Shown here: piece after piece, positions 22,015 to 45,227 of the stretch | Layout: each line of letters begins with the position of its first letter | How positions within the stretch are numbered: position 1 is the first letter of the stretch | From: Escherichia phage KIT06 | Sequence record: OQ349392.1 | Length of the DNA stretch: 64,000 nucleotides | Strand: one strand, 5' to 3' | Notes under the pieces: model-generated | Seen by the model: only the letters and a program-made list of their open reading frames with translations | Database searches by the model: none | What the model was told of the DNA's origin: nothing | Translations under genes and position numbers: made by a program

Positions 22015-22488
22015 ATGTTATTGACTGGCAAATTATACAAAGAAGAAAAACAAAAATTTTATGATGCACAAAACGGTAAATGCTTAATTTGCCAACGAGA
22101 ACTAAATCCTGATGTTCAAGCTAATCACCTTGACCATGACCATGAATTAAATGGACCAAAAGCAGGAAAGGTACGTGGGTTGCTATGTAATCTCTGTAAT
22201 GCTGCAGAAGGTCAAATGAAGCATAAATTCAATCGTTCTGGCTTAAAGGGACAAGGTGTTGATTATCTTGAATGGCTAGAAAATTTACTTACTTATTTAA
22301 AATCCGATTACACCCAAAATAATATTCACCCTAACTTCGTTGGAGATAAATCAAAGGAATTTTCTCGTTTAGGAAAAGAGGAAATGATGGCTGAGATGCT
22401 TCAAAGAGGATTTGAATATAATGAATCTGACACTAAAACACAATTAATAGCTTCATTTAAGAAGCAGCTTAGAAAGAGTTTAAAATGA
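22015..22488 (+). CDS. 49: endonuclease VII (Holliday junction resolvase, gp49)
   Basis: 157 aa, same as T4 gp49; MLLTGKLYKEEKQKFYDAQNGKCLICQRELNP... with Cys4 zinc site and HDH motif. Confidence 0.92.
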   Translation: MLLTGKLYKEEKQKFYDAQNGKCLICQRELNPDVQANHLDHDHELNGPKAGKVRGLLCNLCNAAEGQMKHKFNRSGLKGQGVDYLEWLENLLTYLKSDYTQNNIHPNFVGDKSKEFSRLGKEEMMAEMLQRGFEYNESDTKTQLIASFKKQLRKSLK

Positions 22489-24302
22489 CAATTGAAAAAG
22501 AAATTGAAGGATTGATTCATAAAACTAATAAAGACCTTTTAAACGAGAATGCTAATAAAGATTCTCGTGTTTTTCCAACTCAACGGGACCTTATGGCTGG
22601 TATTGTGTCTAAACACATTGCCAAAAATATGGTCCCGTCTTTTATTATGAAAGCGCATGAAAGCGGAATTATTCATTTCCATGATATTGATTATTCCCCT
22701 GCTCTTCCATTTACTAATTGCTGTTTAGTAGATTTAAAAGGAATGCTTGAGAACGGATTTAAGCTCGGTAATGCACAGATTGAAACTCCTAAATCAATCG
22801 GTGTTGCTACTGCAATTATGGCACAAATTACTGCACAGGTTGCTTCCCATCAATATGGTGGAACGACTTTTGCGAATGTAGATAAAGTACTTTCTCCTTA
22901 TGTTAAACGCACCTATGCAAAACATATTGAGGACGCAGAAAAATGGCAAATCGCTGATGCGTTGAATTATGCCCAATCTAAAACAGAAAAAGATGTATAC
23001 GATGCATTCCAAGCTTATGAATACGAAGTAAATACTCTCTTTAGTTCAAACGGACAAACGCCTTTTGTAACAATTACATTTGGTACGGGAACTGACTGGA
23101 CTGAACGAATGATTCAGAAAGCAATTCTGAAAAATCGTATTAAAGGCCTTGGTCGCGACGGGATAACTCCTATTTTCCCTAAACTTGTTATGTTCGTTGA
23201 AGAAGGTGTTAATCTTTATAAAGACGATCCGAACTATGATATTAAGCAGCTTGCTCTAGAATGTGCAAGTAAAAGAATGTATCCTGACATCATTTCGGCT
23301 AAGAACAATAAAGCTATCACCGGTTCATCTATTCCTGTTTCTCCAATGGGTTGTCGTAGTTTCTTGGGTGTATGGAAAGATTCGACTGGTAATGAAATTC
23401 TTGATGGACGTAATAATCTTGGTGTTGTAACACTGAATCTTCCTCGCATTGCACTAGATTCTTATATTGGAACACAGTTCAATGAACAGAAATTTGCCGA
23501 ATTGTTCAATGAGAGAATGGATTTATGTTTTGAAGCATTGATGTGTAGAATTAGTTCATTAAAAGGAGTTAAAGCTACTGTTGCTCCTATTCTTTACCAA
23601 GAAGGTGCATTCGGGGTTCGTCTTAAACCTGATGACGATATAATTGAGTTATTTAAAAACGGTAGAAGTTCAGTGTCTTTGGGATACATTGGTATTCACG
23701 AATTGAATATTCTTGTCGGTCGTGATATTGGACAAGAAATTTTAACTAAAATGAATGCTCATCTTAAGCAGTGGACTGAAAGAACTGGTTTTGCTTTTAG
23801 TTTGTATTCGACACCTGCTGAAAACCTGTGCTATCGCTTCTGTAAACTTGATACCGAAAAATATGGAAGTGTAAAAGATGTTACCGATAAAGGCTGGTAC
23901 ACTAACAGTTTCCACGTTTCAGTAGAAGAAAATATCACTCCGTTTGAAAAGATTTCTCGTGAAGCACCATATCATTTCATTGCGACAGGTGGTCACATTT
24001 CTTATGTTGAACTTCCTGATATGAAAAATAACCTAAAAGGTCTTGAGGCTGTATGGGATTATGCTGCGCAACATTTAGATTATTTTGGCGTTAACATGCC
24101 AGTAGATAAATGTTTTACGTGTGGAAGTACCCATGAAATGACTCCTACTGAAAACGGATTTGTTTGTTCTATTTGTGGAGAAACTGATCCTAAAAAGATG
24201 AACACAATAAGAAGAACATGCGGATATCTTGGAACTCCTAGCGTTGTTCCATGGAATTTAGGTAAAATGAAAGAAATGGTAAAACGAGTAAAACATGCAT
24301 AG
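22485..24302 (+). CDS. nrdD: anaerobic ribonucleoside-triphosphate reductase NrdD (intronless)
   Basis: Continuous 605-aa ORF; C-terminal zinc ribbon CFTCGS...CSICGE and glycyl-radical region RRTCGYLG; no intron interruption unlike T4. Confidence 0.95.
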   Translation: MTIEKEIEGLIHKTNKDLLNENANKDSRVFPTQRDLMAGIVSKHIAKNMVPSFIMKAHESGIIHFHDIDYSPALPFTNCCLVDLKGMLENGFKLGNAQIETPKSIGVATAIMAQITAQVASHQYGGTTFANVDKVLSPYVKRTYAKHIEDAEKWQIADALNYAQSKTEKDVYDAFQAYEYEVNTLFSSNGQTPFVTITFGTGTDWTERMIQKAILKNRIKGLGRDGITPIFPKLVMFVEEGVNLYKDDPNYDIKQLALECASKRMYPDIISAKNNKAITGSSIPVSPMGCRSFLGVWKDSTGNEILDGRNNLGVVTLNLPRIALDSYIGTQFNEQKFAELFNERMDLCFEALMCRISSLKGVKATVAPILYQEGAFGVRLKPDDDIIELFKNGRSSVSLGYIGIHELNILVGRDIGQEILTKMNAHLKQWTERTGFAFSLYSTPAENLCYRFCKLDTEKYGSVKDVTDKGWYTNSFHVSVEENITPFEKISREAPYHFIATGGHISYVELPDMKNNLKGLEAVWDYAAQHLDYFGVNMPVDKCFTCGSTHEMTPTENGFVCSICGETDPKKMNTIRRTCGYLGTPSVVPWNLGKMKEMVKRVKHA

Positions 24303-25125
24303 GTATTATATAATTTATAAAATAACAAATATAATTAATTCAAAGGAATATATCGGTGCGCATAGCACCGATAACATAAATGACGGTTATATGGGGTCAG
24401 GAACATTGATTCGTGCCGCTTTATTAAAATATGGTAGAAAAAATTTTAATAAAGAAATTTTACATGTTTTTGATAATGAAAAACAAATGTATGATAAAGA
24501 AGCTGAACTCGTAACCGAAGAGTATTGTCTAAAAGAAAATACATATAATATTAAACCTGGTGGAAAAGGTGGAACTGCCTATGAACAGACACTTGAACAT
24601 CGCCGCAAAAATAGTTTAGCAAATAAAGGTAAAAAGAGAACAGAAGAAACTAAAATAGCTATTTCACGTGCTTTAAAGAAATATAAACGTACGCCAGAGC
24701 ATCAAGCAAATTTAAATAAAGCCGTAAGCATAGCTATGAAGCGAAAAGATGTTAGAAGTAAATTAGCTGGAGAGCGGTCTGAGAAAGATAAATTATCTAT
24801 ATCAAACGGTGTTAAAAAATATTACAATTCTTTGAGTGAAGAAGAACGCGAACTTCATCGCAAGCGAATTATTGAAGGTAAAAAGAATTCTCCCATGTCA
24901 TTGGAATCTAGACAAAAGCTTTCAAAAGCTTTAAAAGGACTTCAAGTTGGTTCAAAAAATCCAATGTATGGAAAAATTTCTCCAACTAGCAAAACCGTTT
25001 CAGTTGACGGTATTAAATATGATTCAATTAAAAAGTGCTCAAATGCCATAAAAGTTTCTAGACATCTTATACTAAAACGCTGTAATTCTACTGATGAAGC
25101 TTGGAAAAATTGGATATTATTATGA
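24295..25125 (+). CDS. GIY-YIG homing endonuclease (Seg/Mob-like), free-standing between nrdD and nrdG
   Basis: 276 aa; GIY-YIG motifs YIIYKITN...EYIGAHS...GSG...NTYNIKPGG; repeated NUMOD3-like DNA-binding repeats (KNSLANKGKKRTEETK, SRQKLSKALKG). Confidence 0.85.
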   Translation: MHRYYIIYKITNIINSKEYIGAHSTDNINDGYMGSGTLIRAALLKYGRKNFNKEILHVFDNEKQMYDKEAELVTEEYCLKENTYNIKPGGKGGTAYEQTLEHRRKNSLANKGKKRTEETKIAISRALKKYKRTPEHQANLNKAVSIAMKRKDVRSKLAGERSEKDKLSISNGVKKYYNSLSEEERELHRKRIIEGKKNSPMSLESRQKLSKALKGLQVGSKNPMYGKISPTSKTVSVDGIKYDSIKKCSNAIKVSRHLILKRCNSTDEAWKNWILL

Positions 25126-25592
25126 ATTATGACAGAATATACCCGTGTTGCTTTGTTAACGGTCCTGGGTGCCGAACTGTTCTTTTCGTTACAGGTTGTT
25201 TGCATAAATGTGAAGGGTGTTATAATAAATCAACATGGAATGCTAGAAATGGCGTTCCATTCACTGGTGAAACACTAGAACAATTAATTAAATGTTTGAA
25301 TAATGATTATATAGAAGGATTAACTATAACTGGAGGAGACCCTCTCTATCCAGATAACCGAGATGTTGTTCATTGCATTGTTCAAACAGTAAAAAATCTT
25401 TATCCGAATAAAAGCATTTGGTTGTGGACAGGATATAAGTTTGAAGATATTAAACAACTAGAAATGCTTAAATATGTTGATGTTATTATTGATGGGAAGT
25501 ATGAGAAAAATCTTCCGACCAAAAAGCTGTGGCGAGGTTCAGATAATCAGCGACTTTGGTCAAATACCGATGGGGTGTGGAAACATGATTAA
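25122..25592 (+). CDS. nrdG: anaerobic ribonucleotide reductase activating protein NrdG
   Basis: 156 aa from ATG 25122; radical-SAM-like cysteine motifs CCFVNGPGC and CLHKCEGC. Confidence 0.9.
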   Translation: MNYDRIYPCCFVNGPGCRTVLFVTGCLHKCEGCYNKSTWNARNGVPFTGETLEQLIKCLNNDYIEGLTITGGDPLYPDNRDVVHCIVQTVKNLYPNKSIWLWTGYKFEDIKQLEMLKYVDVIIDGKYEKNLPTKKLWRGSDNQRLWSNTDGVWKHD

Positions 25593-40963: not shown

Positions 40964-41344
40964 ATGAAAATCGCTATTTTGGTTATTGCATTGGGTCTTA
41001 CTGGTTGTGTAGCTCAAGGACCAGTAGTAAATCAGTCTGATGTAGGAAAAATTGTAAACTGTTCAAGCAAATTTTATAATCCTAATGTTAAGTGTTATAA
41101 AGAAGCTCCAAAACAGACAGTAGAACAAATGCAGGCGAATTTTGACGAAGCTATTCGTCCAGATGAATCTGCCCAAGCATATCGTAATTCAGATGTAATT
41201 ACACGCGAAGAAAAAATTGAAAGCTACTGCGCTGAACTTTGGGCAAATTGGGCTAATAATTACCAATGGCGTACTGGTAAAAATGCTCCGATGGAGTATG
41301 TAGTAAATTCTTATAATTCATGTGTAAAAAATTTAACTAAGTGA
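40964..41344 (+). CDS. lipoprotein (imm.1 position)
   Basis: 126 aa from ATG 40964; signal peptide with lipobox LTGC. Confidence 0.55.
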   Translation: MKIAILVIALGLTGCVAQGPVVNQSDVGKIVNCSSKFYNPNVKCYKEAPKQTVEQMQANFDEAIRPDESAQAYRNSDVITREEKIESYCAELWANWANNYQWRTGKNAPMEYVVNSYNSCVKNLTK

Positions 41345-41351
41345 GGAAAAC

Positions 41352-41603
41352 ATGGAAACTTTAGTAGCAGGTTCAATTTTTATGGTTTTAGTTTCAGGCG
41401 TGTTGGCTATTATTATATACATGCTTCCATGGTTCATCGCCTTGATGCGTGGGTCAAAATCTACAGTAGGAATCTTTTTCACATCTTTACTGTTTAACTG
41501 GTCAATTATTGGTTGGTTTATTACATTTATTTGGTCAATTGCCGGTGAAACTAAAAAATCTGCACAGCAAAACCAAGTAATTATCATCAGAGAGAAGGAA
41601 TGA
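41352..41603 (+). CDS. imm: superinfection immunity protein Imm
   Basis: 83 aa as in T4 Imm; two TM helices; located between 43 and 42. Confidence 0.85.
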   Translation: METLVAGSIFMVLVSGVLAIIIYMLPWFIALMRGSKSTVGIFFTSLLFNWSIIGWFITFIWSIAGETKKSAQQNQVIIIREKE

Positions 41604-41749
41604 AAAGCAAAATTATAGCAGTGCTGCTTTTAATCTTGATGATTATAATAAGTATATACTATAGTGTAACGGTTCCTCTTATGATTCCAACGCTTATTAT
41701 AGGGTGGAGTTTATTACTGTTACAAGTTAAATATGAATGTATCAATTGA
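41600..41749 (+). CDS. hypothetical small membrane peptide
   Basis: 49 aa hydrophobic (MKSKIIAVLLLILMIIISIYY...), ATGA overlap with imm stop. Confidence 0.35.
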   Translation: MKSKIIAVLLLILMIIISIYYSVTVPLMIPTLIIGWSLLLLQVKYECIN

Positions 41750-41756
41750 GGTTTAA

Positions 41757-42497
41757 ATGATTAATGACTCTATGACAGTTGAAGAAATTCGTCTTCATTT
41801 GGGAATTGCATTAAAGGAAAAAGATTTTGTAATTGACAAAACCGGGGTTAAAACTATTGAAATTATTGGTGCATCATTTGTAGCAGATGAACCTTTTATT
41901 TTTGGTGCTCTTAATGACGAATACATTCAGCGTGAACTTGAATGGTATAAATCTAAAAGCTTGTTTGTTAAAGATATTCCAGGTGAAACACCGAAGATTT
42001 GGCAACAAGTAGCATCTTCTAAAGGTGAAATTAACTCGAATTATGGTTGGGCTATCTGGTCAGAAGATAACTATGCTCAGTATGATATGTGTTTAGCTGA
42101 ACTTTGTCAAAATCCTGATTCTCGACGTGGTATCATGATTTATACTCGTCCATCCATGCAATTTGACTACAATAAAGATGGTATGTCAGATTTCATGTGT
42201 ACTAATACAGTACAGTACCTGATTCGTGATAAGAAAGTCAATGCAGTCGTTAACATGAGAAGCAATGATTGCTGGGCAGGCTATCGTAATGATTATGCAT
42301 GGCAAAAATACGTATTAGATAAATTAGTATCTGATTTGAATGCAGGCGACCCATCGCGGCAATATAAAGCAGGTTCTATTATATGGAACGTTGGAAGTCT
42401 TCATGTGTACGAAAATCAGTTTTATTTAGTTGACCATTGGTGGAACACTGGTGAAACTCATATTGCTAAAAAGGATTATACTGGAAAATGGAAGTAA
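41757..42497 (+). CDS. 42: dCMP hydroxymethylase gp42
   Basis: 246 aa as in T4; thymidylate-synthase-like fold; sequence recognised. Confidence 0.95.
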   Translation: MINDSMTVEEIRLHLGIALKEKDFVIDKTGVKTIEIIGASFVADEPFIFGALNDEYIQRELEWYKSKSLFVKDIPGETPKIWQQVASSKGEINSNYGWAIWSEDNYAQYDMCLAELCQNPDSRRGIMIYTRPSMQFDYNKDGMSDFMCTNTVQYLIRDKKVNAVVNMRSNDCWAGYRNDYAWQKYVLDKLVSDLNAGDPSRQYKAGSIIWNVGSLHVYENQFYLVDHWWNTGETHIAKKDYTGKWK

Positions 42498-43129
42498 ATG
42501 TGCCACATGTTTATAAGTATAAACATCCTAAAACTAAAAAGTGGTATATAGGAAGTCATGATGGTCACAACCCGAATTATGATGGTTCGGGTGTAGTTTG
42601 GCAACATGCTAAAAAGAAATATGGAATAAAATCCTTTAATAAAGAAATATTATATGAAGGACCAATGTTTAGACAAGTTGAAGAAATTATTTTAACTTGT
42701 TTAGATGCTGCTAATTGTCCGGATTCATATAATTTAAAGAATGAAGCATGGGGAGGAAGTTTTCCAGGCAAATTAAATGGAATGTACGGTAAAAAACTAT
42801 CTCCAGAAGAAAGATATAAGTGCGGAAATGCCTTTCGTGGAATCAAGCGTCCTGATCATTCTAAAAGAATGAAAGGCGAAGGTAATCCAATGTATGGTAA
42901 AAATGAGCAGGCATATGGAATTATAAATCGAGCAAAGGAAAATTCTGGTAAAACTTATGAAGAAATTTTTGGCGCAGAAAAAGCTAAAATAATTAAAGAA
43001 ACGATGTCTAAAAATCGTAAAGGAAAACCTCATAATTTGATAGAAAAAATATGTCCGCATTGCGGACTAAAAGGACGTGGGCCAAATATGACAAGATACC
43101 ATTTTGACAAATGTAAGGCACTTAAATGA
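42488..43129 (+). CDS. GIY-YIG homing endonuclease (Seg-like), free-standing
   Basis: 213 aa; GIY-YIG motifs VYKYKHP...KWYIGSH...GSG...YNLKNEAWGG; NUMOD3-like GEGNPMYGK; C-terminal zinc finger CPHCG...HFDKC. Confidence 0.8.
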   Translation: MEVNVPHVYKYKHPKTKKWYIGSHDGHNPNYDGSGVVWQHAKKKYGIKSFNKEILYEGPMFRQVEEIILTCLDAANCPDSYNLKNEAWGGSFPGKLNGMYGKKLSPEERYKCGNAFRGIKRPDHSKRMKGEGNPMYGKNEQAYGIINRAKENSGKTYEEIFGAEKAKIIKETMSKNRKGKPHNLIEKICPHCGLKGRGPNMTRYHFDKCKALK

Positions 43130-43968
43130 TTCAATTTGTAATTCCAAGTTATCAACGCGTAGGGGCAGTTTCTGCCCTTGATATGTTTCCGACTGATTAT
43201 GAACCTCATATTGTAGTACGTGAACACGAAGAAAAAGCTTATTTTGACGCTTACGGGTCTAGAGCTAAAATTATAACTATTCCTGATGATGTTAATGGAA
43301 TTGCTGGAACTCGTAAAGCAATTACTGATATGTATGCAGGTCAACGAATTTGGATGATCGATGATGATACTACTATTCGTATGAGTTCAATGCGAAAGAA
43401 AGATGATCGTCGCTGCGTAGATAAAATTAATCAGTTAACTCGTGAACAGTTCTATGAATTGATTCAATATGTTGAAGATGCCATGGATTGCGGATATTAT
43501 CATGGCCATGCTCGTTTACCAATTTTTAAAATTACTTCATCTTGGGGTAATTATCGTGAAAATTCATATGGATTCACGAATACATGGTATGACCTTGGAA
43601 AACTTACGACAGAACAAATTGGGTATGGAAAAATTGATTTATGCGAAGATATGTATGCATTTCTCAATTTAATTAATCAAGGTTATCCGCATTTGGCCTT
43701 GTTCAAATATCTGGTTGTGTCTGGAAAAGCACAAGCTCCAGGTGGATGTAGTTCAATTCGTAGTAATTCAAAACATAATAGAGCTCTTGAGCAAATCAAT
43801 AGAGAGTTTCCAGAGCAAGCTCGTTGGAAAACATCGAATATTGAAAAGAGAAAATCGTTGGGTGAAGAAGACGAGCCATTAAAGGTTCTTCGCATGTGTG
43901 TTTCGCGCAAAGAAAAATCAGAAGCGTTTCATAAGTTTAATGCTATTCATCCAATAGCAGTCGATTAA
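43126..43968 (+). CDS. GT-A-fold glycosyltransferase at the beta-gt locus (candidate beta-glucosyl-HMC-alpha-glucosyltransferase)
   Basis: 280 aa; GT2-like N-terminus FVIPSYQR and DXD motif WMIDDDT; not similar to T4 beta-gt (351 aa) by recall. Confidence 0.55.
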   Translation: MIQFVIPSYQRVGAVSALDMFPTDYEPHIVVREHEEKAYFDAYGSRAKIITIPDDVNGIAGTRKAITDMYAGQRIWMIDDDTTIRMSSMRKKDDRRCVDKINQLTREQFYELIQYVEDAMDCGYYHGHARLPIFKITSSWGNYRENSYGFTNTWYDLGKLTTEQIGYGKIDLCEDMYAFLNLINQGYPHLALFKYLVVSGKAQAPGGCSSIRSNSKHNRALEQINREFPEQARWKTSNIEKRKSLGEEDEPLKVLRMCVSRKEKSEAFHKFNAIHPIAVD

Positions 43969-44045
43969 TGCCTAAATTTATTGTGTTATAATTACTTTAT
44001 CTTTAACCAGTGAGGAAAATATAATGATGCCTATGGAAAAAATGA

Positions 44046-45227
44046 ATGTCTATTGCAGATTTAAAATCCCGTTTGATTAAAGCTTCCACTTCTAAAATGA
44101 CTGCTGAACTGACTACATCTAAATTCTTTAATGAAAAGGATGTAATCCGTACAAAAATCCCAATGCTTAATATCGCTATTTCTGGTGCGATTGATGGTGG
44201 TATGCAGTCTGGTTTAACCATTTTTGCAGGTCCTTCTAAACACTTTAAATCAAATATGTCTTTGACTATGGTTGCGGCGTATTTGAACAAATATCCTGAT
44301 GCGGTTTGTTTATTTTATGATAGCGAATTTGGTATTACTCCAGCTTATTTGCGATCCATGGGAGTTGACCCGGAACGAGTAATTCATACACCAATTCAGT
44401 CAGTTGAACAGCTGAAAATTGATATGGTGAATCAGCTTGAAGCTATTGAGCGCGGTGAAAAAGTTATTGTATTCATCGACTCAATCGGTAATATGGCTTC
44501 TAAGAAAGAAACGGAAGATGCCTTGAATGAAAAATCTGTGGCAGATATGACTCGTGCTAAATCACTGAAGTCATTATTCCGTATTGTTACTCCTTATTTT
44601 AGTATTAAAAACATTCCGTGTGTTGCGGTTAACCACACAATTGAAACAATTGAAATGTTTAGTAAAACCGTGATGACAGGTGGTACAGGCGTAATGTATT
44701 CGGCTGATACTGTATTCATTATCGGTAAGCGCCAGATTAAAGATGGTTCTGATCTTCAGGGGTATCAATTTGTTCTAAATGTAGAAAAATCTCGTACCGT
44801 TAAAGAAAAAAGTAAATTCTTTATTGATGTTAAATTTGACGGTGGTATCGATCCTTATTCTGGATTGTTAGATATGGCTCTTGAATTAGGATTTGTAGTA
44901 AAACCTAAAAATGGTTGGTATGCTCGTGAATTTCTTGACGAAGAAACCGGCGAGATGATTCGCGAAGAAAAATCTTGGCGTGCAAAAGATACCAATTGCA
45001 CTACATTCTGGGGTCCTTTATTTAAGCATCAACCATTCCGAGATGCTATTAAACGTGCTTATCAGTTAGGTGCTATTGATAGTAATGAAATTGTTGAAGC
45101 TGAAGTTGATGAATTGATTAACTCAAAGGTTGAAAAATTTAAATCTCCAGAAAGTAAAAGTAAATCAGCCGCTGATTTAGAAACTGACCTAGATCAGTTA
45201 AGTGATATGGAAGAATTTAATGAATAA
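44046..45227 (+). CDS. uvsX: RecA-like recombinase UvsX
   Basis: 393 aa; Walker A GPSKHFKS, near-identical to T4 UvsX along length with small N-terminal indel. Confidence 0.97.
   Translation: MSIADLKSRLIKASTSKMTAELTTSKFFNEKDVIRTKIPMLNIAISGAIDGGMQSGLTIFAGPSKHFKSNMSLTMVAAYLNKYPDAVCLFYDSEFGITPAYLRSMGVDPERVIHTPIQSVEQLKIDMVNQLEAIERGEKVIVFIDSIGNMASKKETEDALNEKSVADMTRAKSLKSLFRIVTPYFSIKNIPCVAVNHTIETIEMFSKTVMTGGTGVMYSADTVFIIGKRQIKDGSDLQGYQFVLNVEKSRTVKEKSKFFIDVKFDGGIDPYSGLLDMALELGFVVKPKNGWYAREFLDEETGEMIREEKSWRAKDTNCTTFWGPLFKHQPFRDAIKRAYQLGAIDSNEIVEAEVDELINSKVEKFKSPESKSKSAADLETDLDQLSDMEEFNE

Follow-up and report, generated by a model that had tools for sequence, protein, structure and literature searches.

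A probable Seg-type GIY-YIG homing endonuclease gene between gene 42 and the glucosyltransferase gene of Escherichia phage KIT06

T-even phages are known to be rich in homing endonucleases of the Seg and Mob types. SegF (gene 56) and SegG (gene 32) of T4 are free-standing GIY-YIG endonucleases known for marker exclusion and co-conversion; they are encoded beside an essential conserved gene, cut within the coding sequence of this neighbor and co-convert flanking polymorphisms; SegA, SegC and SegE have been reported as active, while the activity of SegD is undetermined (PMC2988022). The related enzymes I-TevI and I-BmoI are encoded by introns, in T4 td and in B. mojavensis thyA, respectively. 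Here, an open reading frame (ORF) was analyzed in 64,000 nucleotides (nt) of Escherichia phage KIT06 (OQ349392.1; the whole stretch is called the window below). It encodes 213 amino acids (aa), lies between gene 42 for dCMP hydroxymethylase and a glucosyltransferase gene, and is probably a free-standing Seg-type GIY-YIG homing endonuclease gene targeting gene 42 alleles without the endonuclease (Table 1). The gene is ordinary in type, and the exact protein is present in public records.

The window includes the early region of a Tequatrovirus in the order 43, imm.1, imm, 42.1, 42, the endonuclease ORF, a 280-aa gene, uvsX, 40 and 41. An earlier note on this DNA, made from the sequence alone, had placed a free-standing 213-aa GIY-YIG gene here, overlapping the gene 42 stop, in a region that varies among T-even phages, and this held in each respect. 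Three features described below go beyond that note: the polymorphism of presence and absence, the recoding at the 3' end of gene 42 that accompanies the endonuclease, and the tie of the whole clade to hydroxymethylase genes. The ORF, starting with ATG in the ORF list of the window, was found at exactly these coordinates and outside any intron or intein. Its start codon lies within the last codons of gene 42 (10 nt overlap, with the gene 42 TAA at 42495-42497), and its TGA overlaps the glucosyltransferase ATG as ATGA. The gene order is 42/beta-gt/segA/uvsX in T4 and 42/beta-alpha-gt/uvsX in T2 and T6, as compared to 42/seg-like/beta-alpha-gt/uvsX in the window. The ORF is not a chance ORF, since the identical protein was found on 120 contigs in public databases (mostly labeled 'hypothetical protein', and automatically 'Homing endonuclease' in UniRef), 69 homologues were found at E <= 1e-3, and the ratio of nonsynonymous to synonymous substitution rates (dN/dS) between genera was 0.13-0.17, an approximate value because dS was saturated.

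First, the relationship to known endonucleases was determined. The complete set of T4 Seg proteins and the two GIY-YIG intron enzymes were taken from NC_000866 and compared with the 213-aa protein by BLASTP, a check that the earlier note had suggested. SegC gave the best match (36% identity over 117 aa, E 3e-12), followed by SegB (36% over 102 aa, E 3e-10), SegD (31% over 144 aa, E 2e-9), SegA (32% over 167 aa, E 5e-8) and SegE (36% over 88 aa, E 2e-6). The N-terminal domain of the window ORF at 24295-25125, to which the protein had been likened, aligned across 134 aa at 34% identity (E 5.5e-10); YIGxH, GSG and KYG..FNKEIL are common to both. All of these matches were confined to the N-terminal domain. 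SegF similarity was marginal (E 0.001), and SegG did not match. The protein also matched PHROG 314 'homing endonuclease' (1.8e-31). When a profile made from alignment A1 of 36 homologues was searched against the whole PDB, the sole match was the catalytic domain of I-TevI (E 0.012), with the full domain aligned and both Tyr as well as the Glu and the Asn at matching positions. The AlphaFold2 model calculated on A1 had a mean predicted local distance difference test (pLDDT) score of 85.9, with 92-97 across residues 11-80. Its catalytic domain showed the GIY-YIG alpha/beta fold, i.e., a three-stranded sheet flanked by helices, and its best structural neighbors were all GIY-YIG nucleases, including PD-T4-3, T4 EndoII, the UvrC N-domain and R.Eco29kI. 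I-TevI is the closest solved structure for the nuclease domain. Sequence and model together support a GIY-YIG nuclease fold with Seg-type residues for the N-terminal domain.

The Seg signature could be aligned throughout this domain, with Y9 (GIY), Y20-I-G22-S-H24 (YIG-x-H), Y31-x-G33-S34-G35, K-K-Y-G46, F51-N-K-E-I-L, E65/E66, Y80-N82 and G88-G89. With respect to I-TevI, Y9 corresponded to Y6, Y20-I-G22 to Y17-V-G19, E65/E66 to the catalytic Glu E75 and N82 to N90. Y20, G22, G33, N82, G94 and R203 were invariant in the 36 homologues, Y9 was conserved in at least 90% of them, and the Glu was kept in the closer homologues. The earlier note had named loss of catalytic residues as grounds for giving up the assignment; the protein retains the residues that are conserved among active Seg enzymes of T4. 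The protein resembles T4 SegA-SegE also in being free-standing between conserved early genes, in its size (about 200-220 aa), in its presence/absence polymorphism among T-even phages, in the order of the signature (YIGxH ... Y-x-GSG ... KYG..F.KEIL ... E ... YN..GG) and in having NUMOD3-type linker repeats. It differs from them in two nuclease-domain loops that are 3-4 residues shorter. T4 segA occupies the same 42-uvsX interval but is located between beta-gt and uvsX, while the gene of the window is inserted between 42 and the glucosyltransferase gene, and its target is presumably gene 42 rather than uvsX. Orthology to T4 segA-segG was rejected, since the best match, SegC, covers the nuclease domain only, and genomic position and C-terminus differ. 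The labels 'SegD' and 'segE' on some database copies are similarity transfers, refuted by BLASTP and synteny.

The remainder of the protein follows the modular layout of the Seg type in model and alignment, namely an N-terminal GIY-YIG domain, a NUMOD-type linker and a C-terminal DNA-binding module. The earlier note had proposed a NUMOD3-like repeat. The motif is present twice (NGMYGK at 97-102 and NPMYGK at 133-138), and precomputed PF07460 (NUMOD3) matches are listed for many homologues, but the Pfam match of the protein itself was below threshold (18.1 bits at residues 125-138, cut-off 20.4). G94, N97, G130, N133, P134 and G137 of the linker were invariant or at least 90% conserved in the 36 homologues. 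The C-terminal zinc finger of the earlier note was found as a CCHC knuckle with the spacing C189-x2-C192-x12-H205-x3-C209, in which each Cys and His was at least 90% conserved. It was modeled as a beta-hairpin plus a short helix (pLDDT about 80-86) and is presumed to be a DNA-binding module. T4 SegA-G all lack such a knuckle in their C-terminal part. I-TevI and I-BmoI resemble the 213-aa protein in the modular nuclease-linker-DNA-binding architecture and in a host gene of the same enzyme superfamily. In contrast, the gene of the window is free-standing instead of intron-encoded and is inserted 243 nt past the MRSND block of gene 42, at the gene end. In I-TevI, the zinc finger is a Cys4 finger in the linker, unlike the C-terminal CCHC knuckle, and the 213-aa protein has no helix-turn-helix domain of the I-TevI type.

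The knuckle motif N[ML]xRYHFx[KN]C was found in at least 600 stretches of IMG/VR viral contigs, 520 of which, among the matches listed, encode a relative. Many of the 80 IMG/VR loci kept aligned only to the C-terminal part of the query. The isolated C-terminus did not give a significant match to Pfam families. The abundance of the motif and the many relatives matching only this part suggest that the knuckle is a widespread, portable phage endonuclease module without a Pfam family model. Domain shuffling was seen within the clade: homologues P0038 (L024, 2501-3184) and P0040 keep nuclease and linker, while the knuckle is swapped for an unrelated C-terminal tail (...YYGCIKDAMLDLNLTRFEIKK) without the Cys and His residues of the knuckle. 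Several of the homologues P0019, P0034, P0037, P0048, P0056 and P0057 have a second copy of the CxxC...H...C knuckle.

Second, presence and absence of the gene were compared among phages. Endonuclease DNA was found in 77 phage records at >=95% nucleotide identity and in 71 at >=99%, all of them Tequatroviruses of Escherichia, Shigella, Yersinia and Salmonella. A synthetic empty-site query, in which 300 nt of gene 42 were joined to 300 nt of the glucosyltransferase gene, matched 478 records at >=80% coverage. The query halves spanned about 1240 bp in the sampled carriers and were contiguous (603-610 bp) in every other record sampled, T2, T6 and RB51 among them. Among Tequatrovirus genomes, about 77 carriers compare with about 400 precise empty sites, T2 and T6 among the latter. 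Gene 42 and the glucosyltransferase gene of T2 and T6 share an ATGA overlap. Alignment of the junction with T2, T6, ECp13 and ERS-1 showed that the insertion lies cleanly between GATTATA and AAATGATTC. Empty sites have the sequence ...GATTATA-ACGGTGAGTGG-AAATGATTCAATT..., and in carriers it is ...GATTATA-CTGGAAAATGGAAGTAAATG...(endonuclease gene)...GGCACTT-AAATGATTCAATT.... The right boundary is AAATGATTCAATT, common to carriers and empty sites, at the glucosyltransferase gene. At the left boundary, the gene 42 end is re-created (Table 1), and the endonuclease ATG lies within the AAA TGG codons of this new end. About 10 of 142 records of Klebsiella Jiaodavirus have a 70%-identical homologue in the same slot, starting in the same gene 42 Trp codon (GAA TGG). 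In the record of Klebsiella phage vB_KpnM_GF (L011, MK421971, ~2490-2600), gene 42 breaks off behind ...GNIIWNA and continues directly as the final ~30 codons of the seg homologue (PHNLIKRSCPHCGKVGSGPNMTRYHFDKCKDKK, followed by the stop codon). This deletion, starting around LHVY in gene 42 and ending within the endonuclease gene, would, if real, inactivate gene 42; the record is a partial genome, and an assembly artefact is possible.

Third, gene 42 of the carriers was found to be recoded. The window was 90-100% identical to T2, T6 and ECp13 over most of 40970-44900, but only 63-65% identical at 42225-42284 and 78-90% at 42345-42464. In comparison, identity to the carrier vB_SsoM_113 was 93-100% across both low-identity blocks. 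Patch 1 covers the MRSND active-site motif. The carrier allele reads GTC GTT AAC ATG AGA AGC AAT GAT TGC TGG GCA GGC TAT (N-MRSND-CWAGY), and the T2/T6 allele reads GTA GTA AGC ATG CGC TCA AAT GAC GTG GTC TTC GGA TTC (S-MRSND-VVFGF). From ATG CGC onward, T4 shares the T2/T6 core; its differences elsewhere are minor and synonymous. The synonymous switches in patch 1, Arg CGC to AGA and Ser TCA to AGC, comprise two or three substitutions each. Patch 2, after LHVY, reads GTG TAC GAA AAT CAG TTT TAT TTA GTT GAC (VYENQFYLVD) in carriers and GTA TAT TCT CGT CAT TTT TAC TTG GTT GAT (VYSRHFYLVD) in T2/T6.

The last 251 nt of gene 42 were bimodal across the phage collection: 87 records matched at >=95% and 410 at 80-90%, with none in between, and in the group of 410 the alignment began only past patch 1. 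The association of the recoded allele with the endonuclease recurred independently in Jiaodavirus, where the carrier VMC03 has CWAGY and YQNQ, while KP179, JD18 and Phi_KR8, which lack this endonuclease, have VVFGY and Y[ES]RH. At all loci examined, including metagenomic phages, the Ser codon of MRSND was AGY in nine of ten carriers and TCN in six of six loci without the endonuclease. W-A-G was present in all gp42-like carriers and V-F-G in loci without the endonuclease, and Gln versus His in patch 2 tracked the endonuclease across genera. Phages EO1 (L015, OQ223305, 821-1561) and ERS-1 (L008, PP337211, ~1700-1830) combine the carrier patches CWAGY and YENQ with a T6-type gene 42 3' end and junction and have no endonuclease gene. 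ERS-1 has small indels near the gene 42 end, and its record is marked UNVERIFIED. Both are natural recombinants that may be either partial conversion products or products of loss.

Fourth, the genes adjacent to homologues were compared. Seven homologues of about 43-65% identity, from Yersinia phage MHG19 and six metagenomic contigs (some with a family-A DNA polymerase or up to 378 kb long), were located by exact-protein look-ups, and all were immediately 3' of a gene of the Thymidylat_synt family. The MRS[NT]D motif was present in all of the upstream enzymes. Among lineages found by routes other than IMG/VR, a thymidylate-synthase-family gene was upstream in nine of nine. For a larger test with an internal control, 80 loci from the knuckle-motif matches listed in IMG/VR were scanned with a hidden Markov model (HMM) of the upstream enzymes; two of the nine lineages are on the same contigs as IMG/VR loci, and there is overlap with the look-ups (e.g., L041/L042 are the contigs of L019/P0041). 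At >=51% identity, a thymidylate-synthase-family gene was upstream on the same strand at 16 of 16 IMG/VR loci. It was directly adjacent at 14, and at two it ended ~420 nt upstream, a gap that is probably filled by a C-terminal extension of the enzyme as in L021. Among the 64 more distant relatives, only one adjacent and two nearby genes of this family were found. Thus, the association is a property of the clade and not of the DNA-binding module; the knuckle as its cause was ruled out by the 64 distant relatives sharing the motif. The downstream neighbor varies (beta-gt, beta-alpha-gt, helicase, dCMP deaminase or unknown ORFs). Since it differs in nearly every lineage, the glucosyltransferase was rejected as a target. 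By its sequence context, the clade appears specialized on members of the thymidylate synthase family of the hydroxymethylase (dCMP/dUMP) type.

Fifth, nucleotide diversity (pi) was compared in six carrier genomes. It was 0.009 in the endonuclease gene, as compared to 0.044 in the 43/imm region, 0.043 in the 5' part of gene 42, 0.029 in its 3' part and 0.045 in the glucosyltransferase gene. Diversity was thus five-fold lower in the endonuclease gene than in the flanks, with an abrupt rise to 0.047-0.079 right past the endonuclease stop. Low diversity extends upstream into gene 42 and not downstream, the pattern expected of a break on the side of gene 42; with six genomes, this is suggestive only. 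The protein was full-length and 99-100% identical in most of the ~77 carriers, and the dN/dS values show purifying selection on the gene. In the distant phages L021 and L022, the endonucleases were 46-53% identical and the adjacent hydroxymethylase-like genes 30%. Because the endonuclease is more conserved than the neighboring essential enzyme gene, vertical descent is hard to reconcile with this pair. Recent horizontal spread is argued for by these data. The low diversity, the bimodal gene 42 allele, the EO1 and ERS-1 recombinants and the conservation of endonuclease over host gene are indirect population signals of unidirectional transfer with co-conversion. Past window position 44700, a seeming diversity of 0.1-0.2 was caused by SYGD1 (L025, MW883059, 3847-5401), where uvsX is annotated as truncated (310 aa versus 393) and the next ORF has a strong NUMOD3 match (38.7 bits). 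This ORF probably encodes a further homing endonuclease, inserted in uvsX or behind it.

These data point, with good but not full confidence, to a free-standing Seg-type homing endonuclease that targets endonuclease-less gene 42. We infer its cleavage activity, the position of the cut, the role of the patches in immunity and the mode of expression from steps modeled on the T4 Seg enzymes and I-TevI (PMC2988022, PMC5009752). The gene would be co-transcribed with gene 42 and, since its ATG lies inside the last gene 42 codons, translated by coupling. In a mixed infection with an empty-site phage of the T2/T6 type, the protein would bind DNA through NUMOD3 and the zinc-knuckle module, and the N-terminal GIY-YIG domain would cut both strands of the empty-site gene 42, in its 3' quarter or close to it. 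UvsX-dependent recombinational repair off the carrier template would then copy the endonuclease gene and co-convert adjacent gene 42 sequence. Carriers would be protected because the insertion interrupts the 42/glucosyltransferase junction and, as proposed, because the MRSND-CWAGY and/or LHVY-ENQ blocks are recoded. Candidate target sites are patch 1, patch 2 and the junction. A CNNNG-type cleavage motif separating the two alleles was not identified by eye. Since CNNNG pentamers occur in patch 1 of both alleles, no cut site is claimed.

The junction itself might be the target. In such a case, the intact 42/glucosyltransferase junction would be recognized and cut within tens of bp, and the MRSND and LHVY blocks, 80-240 bp upstream, would be co-converted passengers from the original donor, with no part in targeting or immunity. 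Destruction of the junction by the insertion would suffice for immunity, the last five gene 42 codons are also recoded in carriers, and, as seen in EO1 and ERS-1, recombination can part the patches from the endonuclease gene. I-TevI, moreover, binds its own insertion site and cuts 23-25 bp off (PMC2988022; PMC5009752). However, the downstream half of the junction is wholly different between lineages, and only the hydroxymethylase side is constant. The WAG/AGY signature accompanies the endonuclease in very divergent hosts, so that hitch-hiking from a single donor is harder to sustain. Characterized free-standing Seg and Mob endonucleases of T4 target the neighboring gene and not their own insertion point (table in PMC2988022). 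Recognition of the junction is possible but not probable.

A more specific proposal, by analogy and held with considerable doubt, is that the clade recognizes the DNA of the RS(N)D active-site block at patch 1, the block that I-TevI and I-BmoI cut in td and thyA. With an exon 1 of td that we take to be 549 nt long, which gives a sensible spliced protein, the exon ends in ...TAT CAA CGC TCA GTA GAT GTT TTC TTG GGT (YQRSVDVFLG). The published cleavage motif of I-TevI, CA-AC-G (PMC5009752), falls as CAACG in the Q-R codons of td YQRSVD, a block paralogous to MRSNDVVFG of gp42. If true, GIY-YIG homing endonucleases would have colonized paralogous genes at a homologous motif, by target switching or convergence. 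The free-standing form (243 nt away, at the gene end) and the intron form (23 nt away) would be two solutions to one target, and the synonymous recoding of CGC to AGA and TCN to AGY in carriers would be the immunity determinant.

Several observations weigh against the favored reading. In addition to the sub-threshold NUMOD3 score, no Pfam GIY-YIG (PF01541) match was obtained at E <= 0.1, and TIGR01453 'group I intron endonuclease' scored 25.1 bits, under its cut-off of 56.05. No residue aligns to the catalytic Arg27 of I-TevI, whose R27 segment is an insertion relative to this family; H24 or K43/K44 may serve as a basic substitute. In Shinka (L027, MZ502379, ~2850-2910), a 1-nt insertion in an A-run of the endonuclease gene removes the zinc knuckle, and in REP3/REP2 and PYps5T the annotation divides the gene into two ORFs (127+86 aa and 110+117 aa, respectively). 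These disrupted copies could reflect decay of the element or (homopolymer) sequencing errors. About ten records have the carrier-type allele but no endonuclease (87 versus 77), which fits either loss or pre-existing resistant alleles. The patch linkage could be pure hitch-hiking from one donor lineage instead of immunity, and the diversity comparison comprises six genomes only. The endonuclease gene has no detected promoter, terminator or regulatory hairpin of its own: RNA folds at its start and stop were no better than those of shuffles (z of -0.11, +0.44 and +1.27), without a start-masking hairpin, and a scan for sigma-70 promoters and terminators, which excludes T4 late and middle promoters, gave background level only. 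Finally, no published biochemical or genetic study of this protein, or named endonuclease at this position, was found in a search covering subscription journals poorly, so that an older description is possible.

Since the curated family thresholds were not reached, the GIY-YIG call rests on the fold prediction, the I-TevI profile match and the motif alignment. These thresholds are the sole support for the view that the ORF is non-functional or unrelated to GIY-YIG nucleases, with a fortuitous likeness of motifs. As a calibration, T4 SegF and SegG did not have any Pfam match either, and SegC, SegD and SegE scored under the PF01541 cut-off. In view of the PHROG 314 match, the BLASTP matches to five T4 Seg proteins, the I-TevI profile match, the modeled fold, the 69 homologues and the purifying selection, a fortuitous likeness is effectively refuted.

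The gene could also be a decaying or domesticated relic that does not cleave and persists neutrally or as a DNA-binding or regulatory protein. The missing Arg27 equivalent, the lack of a curated family match and the frameshifted or split copies agree with such a relic, and T4 carries the defective endonuclease genes mobA and I-TevIII. However, in the motif alignment, T4 SegA, SegC, SegD and SegE likewise lack an Arg at this position, active enzymes among them, just as SegF and SegG lack a Pfam match. The ORF is intact and nearly invariant in most carriers, dN/dS is low between genera, and the GIY, YIG and Asn residues are highly conserved or invariant, with the Glu kept in closer homologues. 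The five-fold reduction in diversity indicates recent horizontal spread, which needs activity. A relic is thus unlikely, and an active homing endonuclease remains the favored reading. By fold, motifs, architecture and population behavior, the 213-aa gene belongs with the Seg-type homing endonucleases as an uncharacterized member that is not an orthologue of SegA-G and is distinguished by its CCHC knuckle, the two shortened nuclease loops and the strict association with hydroxymethylase genes. Its population pattern is that expected from the mechanism of SegF and SegG, with which it also shares the lack of a Pfam GIY-YIG match; these two were proven by experiment and have different host genes.

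Table 1. Features of the gene 42/glucosyltransferase region in the window.
Feature	Coordinates	Strand	Evidence or remark
Gene 42, dCMP hydroxymethylase; upstream neighbor, probable target gene	41757..42497	+	Pfam Thymidylat_synt; codon alignment with T4/T2/T6
Patch 1, recoded over the MRSND active-site motif	42246..42284	+	Candidate recognition/cleavage region
Patch 2, recoded after LHVY	42405..42434	+	Second candidate target or co-converted marker
Re-created gene 42 3' end, left insertion boundary	42480..42497	+	ACT GGA AAA TGG AAG TAA (TGKWK-stop) replaces AAC GGT GAG TGG AAA TGA (NGEWK-stop)
Probable Seg-like free-standing GIY-YIG homing endonuclease gene	42488..43129	+	ORF, PHROG 314, Seg similarity, AlphaFold2 model, presence/absence among phages
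GIY-YIG nuclease domain, aa 1 to ~92	42488..42763	+	Y9, Y20-I-G22, H24, Y31-x-G33-S34-G35, K44-Y-G46, E65/E66, N82, G88-G89
Linker with two NUMOD3-like repeats, G94..NGMYGK102 and G130-x-x-NPMYGK138	42767..42901	+	Sub-threshold Pfam, conservation
C-terminal CCHC zinc knuckle, C189-P-H-C192 ... N200-M-T-R203-Y-H205-F-D-K-C209	43052..43114	+	Conservation, model
Beta-glucosyl-HMC-alpha-glucosyltransferase gene, downstream neighbor	43126..43968	+	PHROG 842, Pfam TAGT

Both neighbors of the endonuclease gene could be assigned. The gene 42 product matched Pfam Thymidylat_synt (9e-15), and the gene (741 nt) aligns codon for codon with gene 42 of T4, T2 and T6. The downstream gene (280 aa; PHROG 842, E 3.9e-88; Pfam TAGT, 37.9 bits) is of the type of phages T2 and T6. 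A TATAAAG at ~42363 was set aside as a promoter signal, being uninformative because it is also present in phages without the endonuclease. A GC-rich terminator-like hairpin at 43160-43180 (+; TAGGGGCAGTTTCTGCCCTTG, then a T-rich tail) lies in the coding sequence of the glucosyltransferase, among its first 55 nt, and is an annotated terminator in phage fPS-2. It is kept in T2/T6-type phages without the endonuclease and, in changed form, in Jiaodavirus; due to this conservation, it is placed outside the mobile element.

Other endonuclease genes were noticed in comparable positions. Klebsiella phage Phi_KR8 (L013, PP442064, 1498-2028) has an unannotated HNH ORF of 176 aa in the same slot between gene 42 and beta-alpha-gt. 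Like the gene of the window, this Mob-type gene has its start within the W-K-stop codons of gene 42 and its end overlapping the glucosyltransferase start, and its product has NUMOD3-like repeats and a C-terminal CxxC...H...C. In contrast, its catalytic domain is HNH (PF01844, 26.2 bits, above the cut-off), and gene 42 of Phi_KR8 keeps the non-carrier allele, with VVFGY and YSRH. This HNH gene invaded the junction independently. The earlier note had counted the 213-aa gene as the second GIY-YIG endonuclease gene of the window. At least one other is present, at 24295-25125 (+); the survey here was confined to the gene 42 locus, so the count applies to these two. This 276-aa Seg-type ORF lies between nrdD (22485-24302) and nrdG (25101-25592). 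It shares 54% identity with T4 SegB (90 aa aligned) and 32% with SegD (263 aa aligned), and it has a NUMOD3 match of 33.8 bits as well as a sub-threshold match to the I-TevI DNA-binding domain. In T4, the nrdD/nrdG slot contains the HNH endonuclease gene mobC. Thus, this slot is held by different endonuclease families in different T-even phages.

In Tequatrovirus, Jiaodavirus and metagenomic phages unrelated to them, the clade described here is tied to a single enzyme family, the thymidylate-synthase homologues of the dCMP/dUMP hydroxymethylase type. The endonuclease gene also explains why gene 42 of T-even phages is locally mosaic. With hundreds of natural empty sites, a bimodal recoded allele of the target gene and natural partial recombinants, the locus is a well-posed test case that provides candidate target and immunity sequences. 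The interval from 42 to uvsX contains segA in T4, the 213-aa gene in the window, an HNH gene in Phi_KR8 and, after uvsX, the NUMOD3 ORF in SYGD1. On account of these genes, it is a hot spot in which selfish nucleases shape the exchange of DNA-modification genes between phages.

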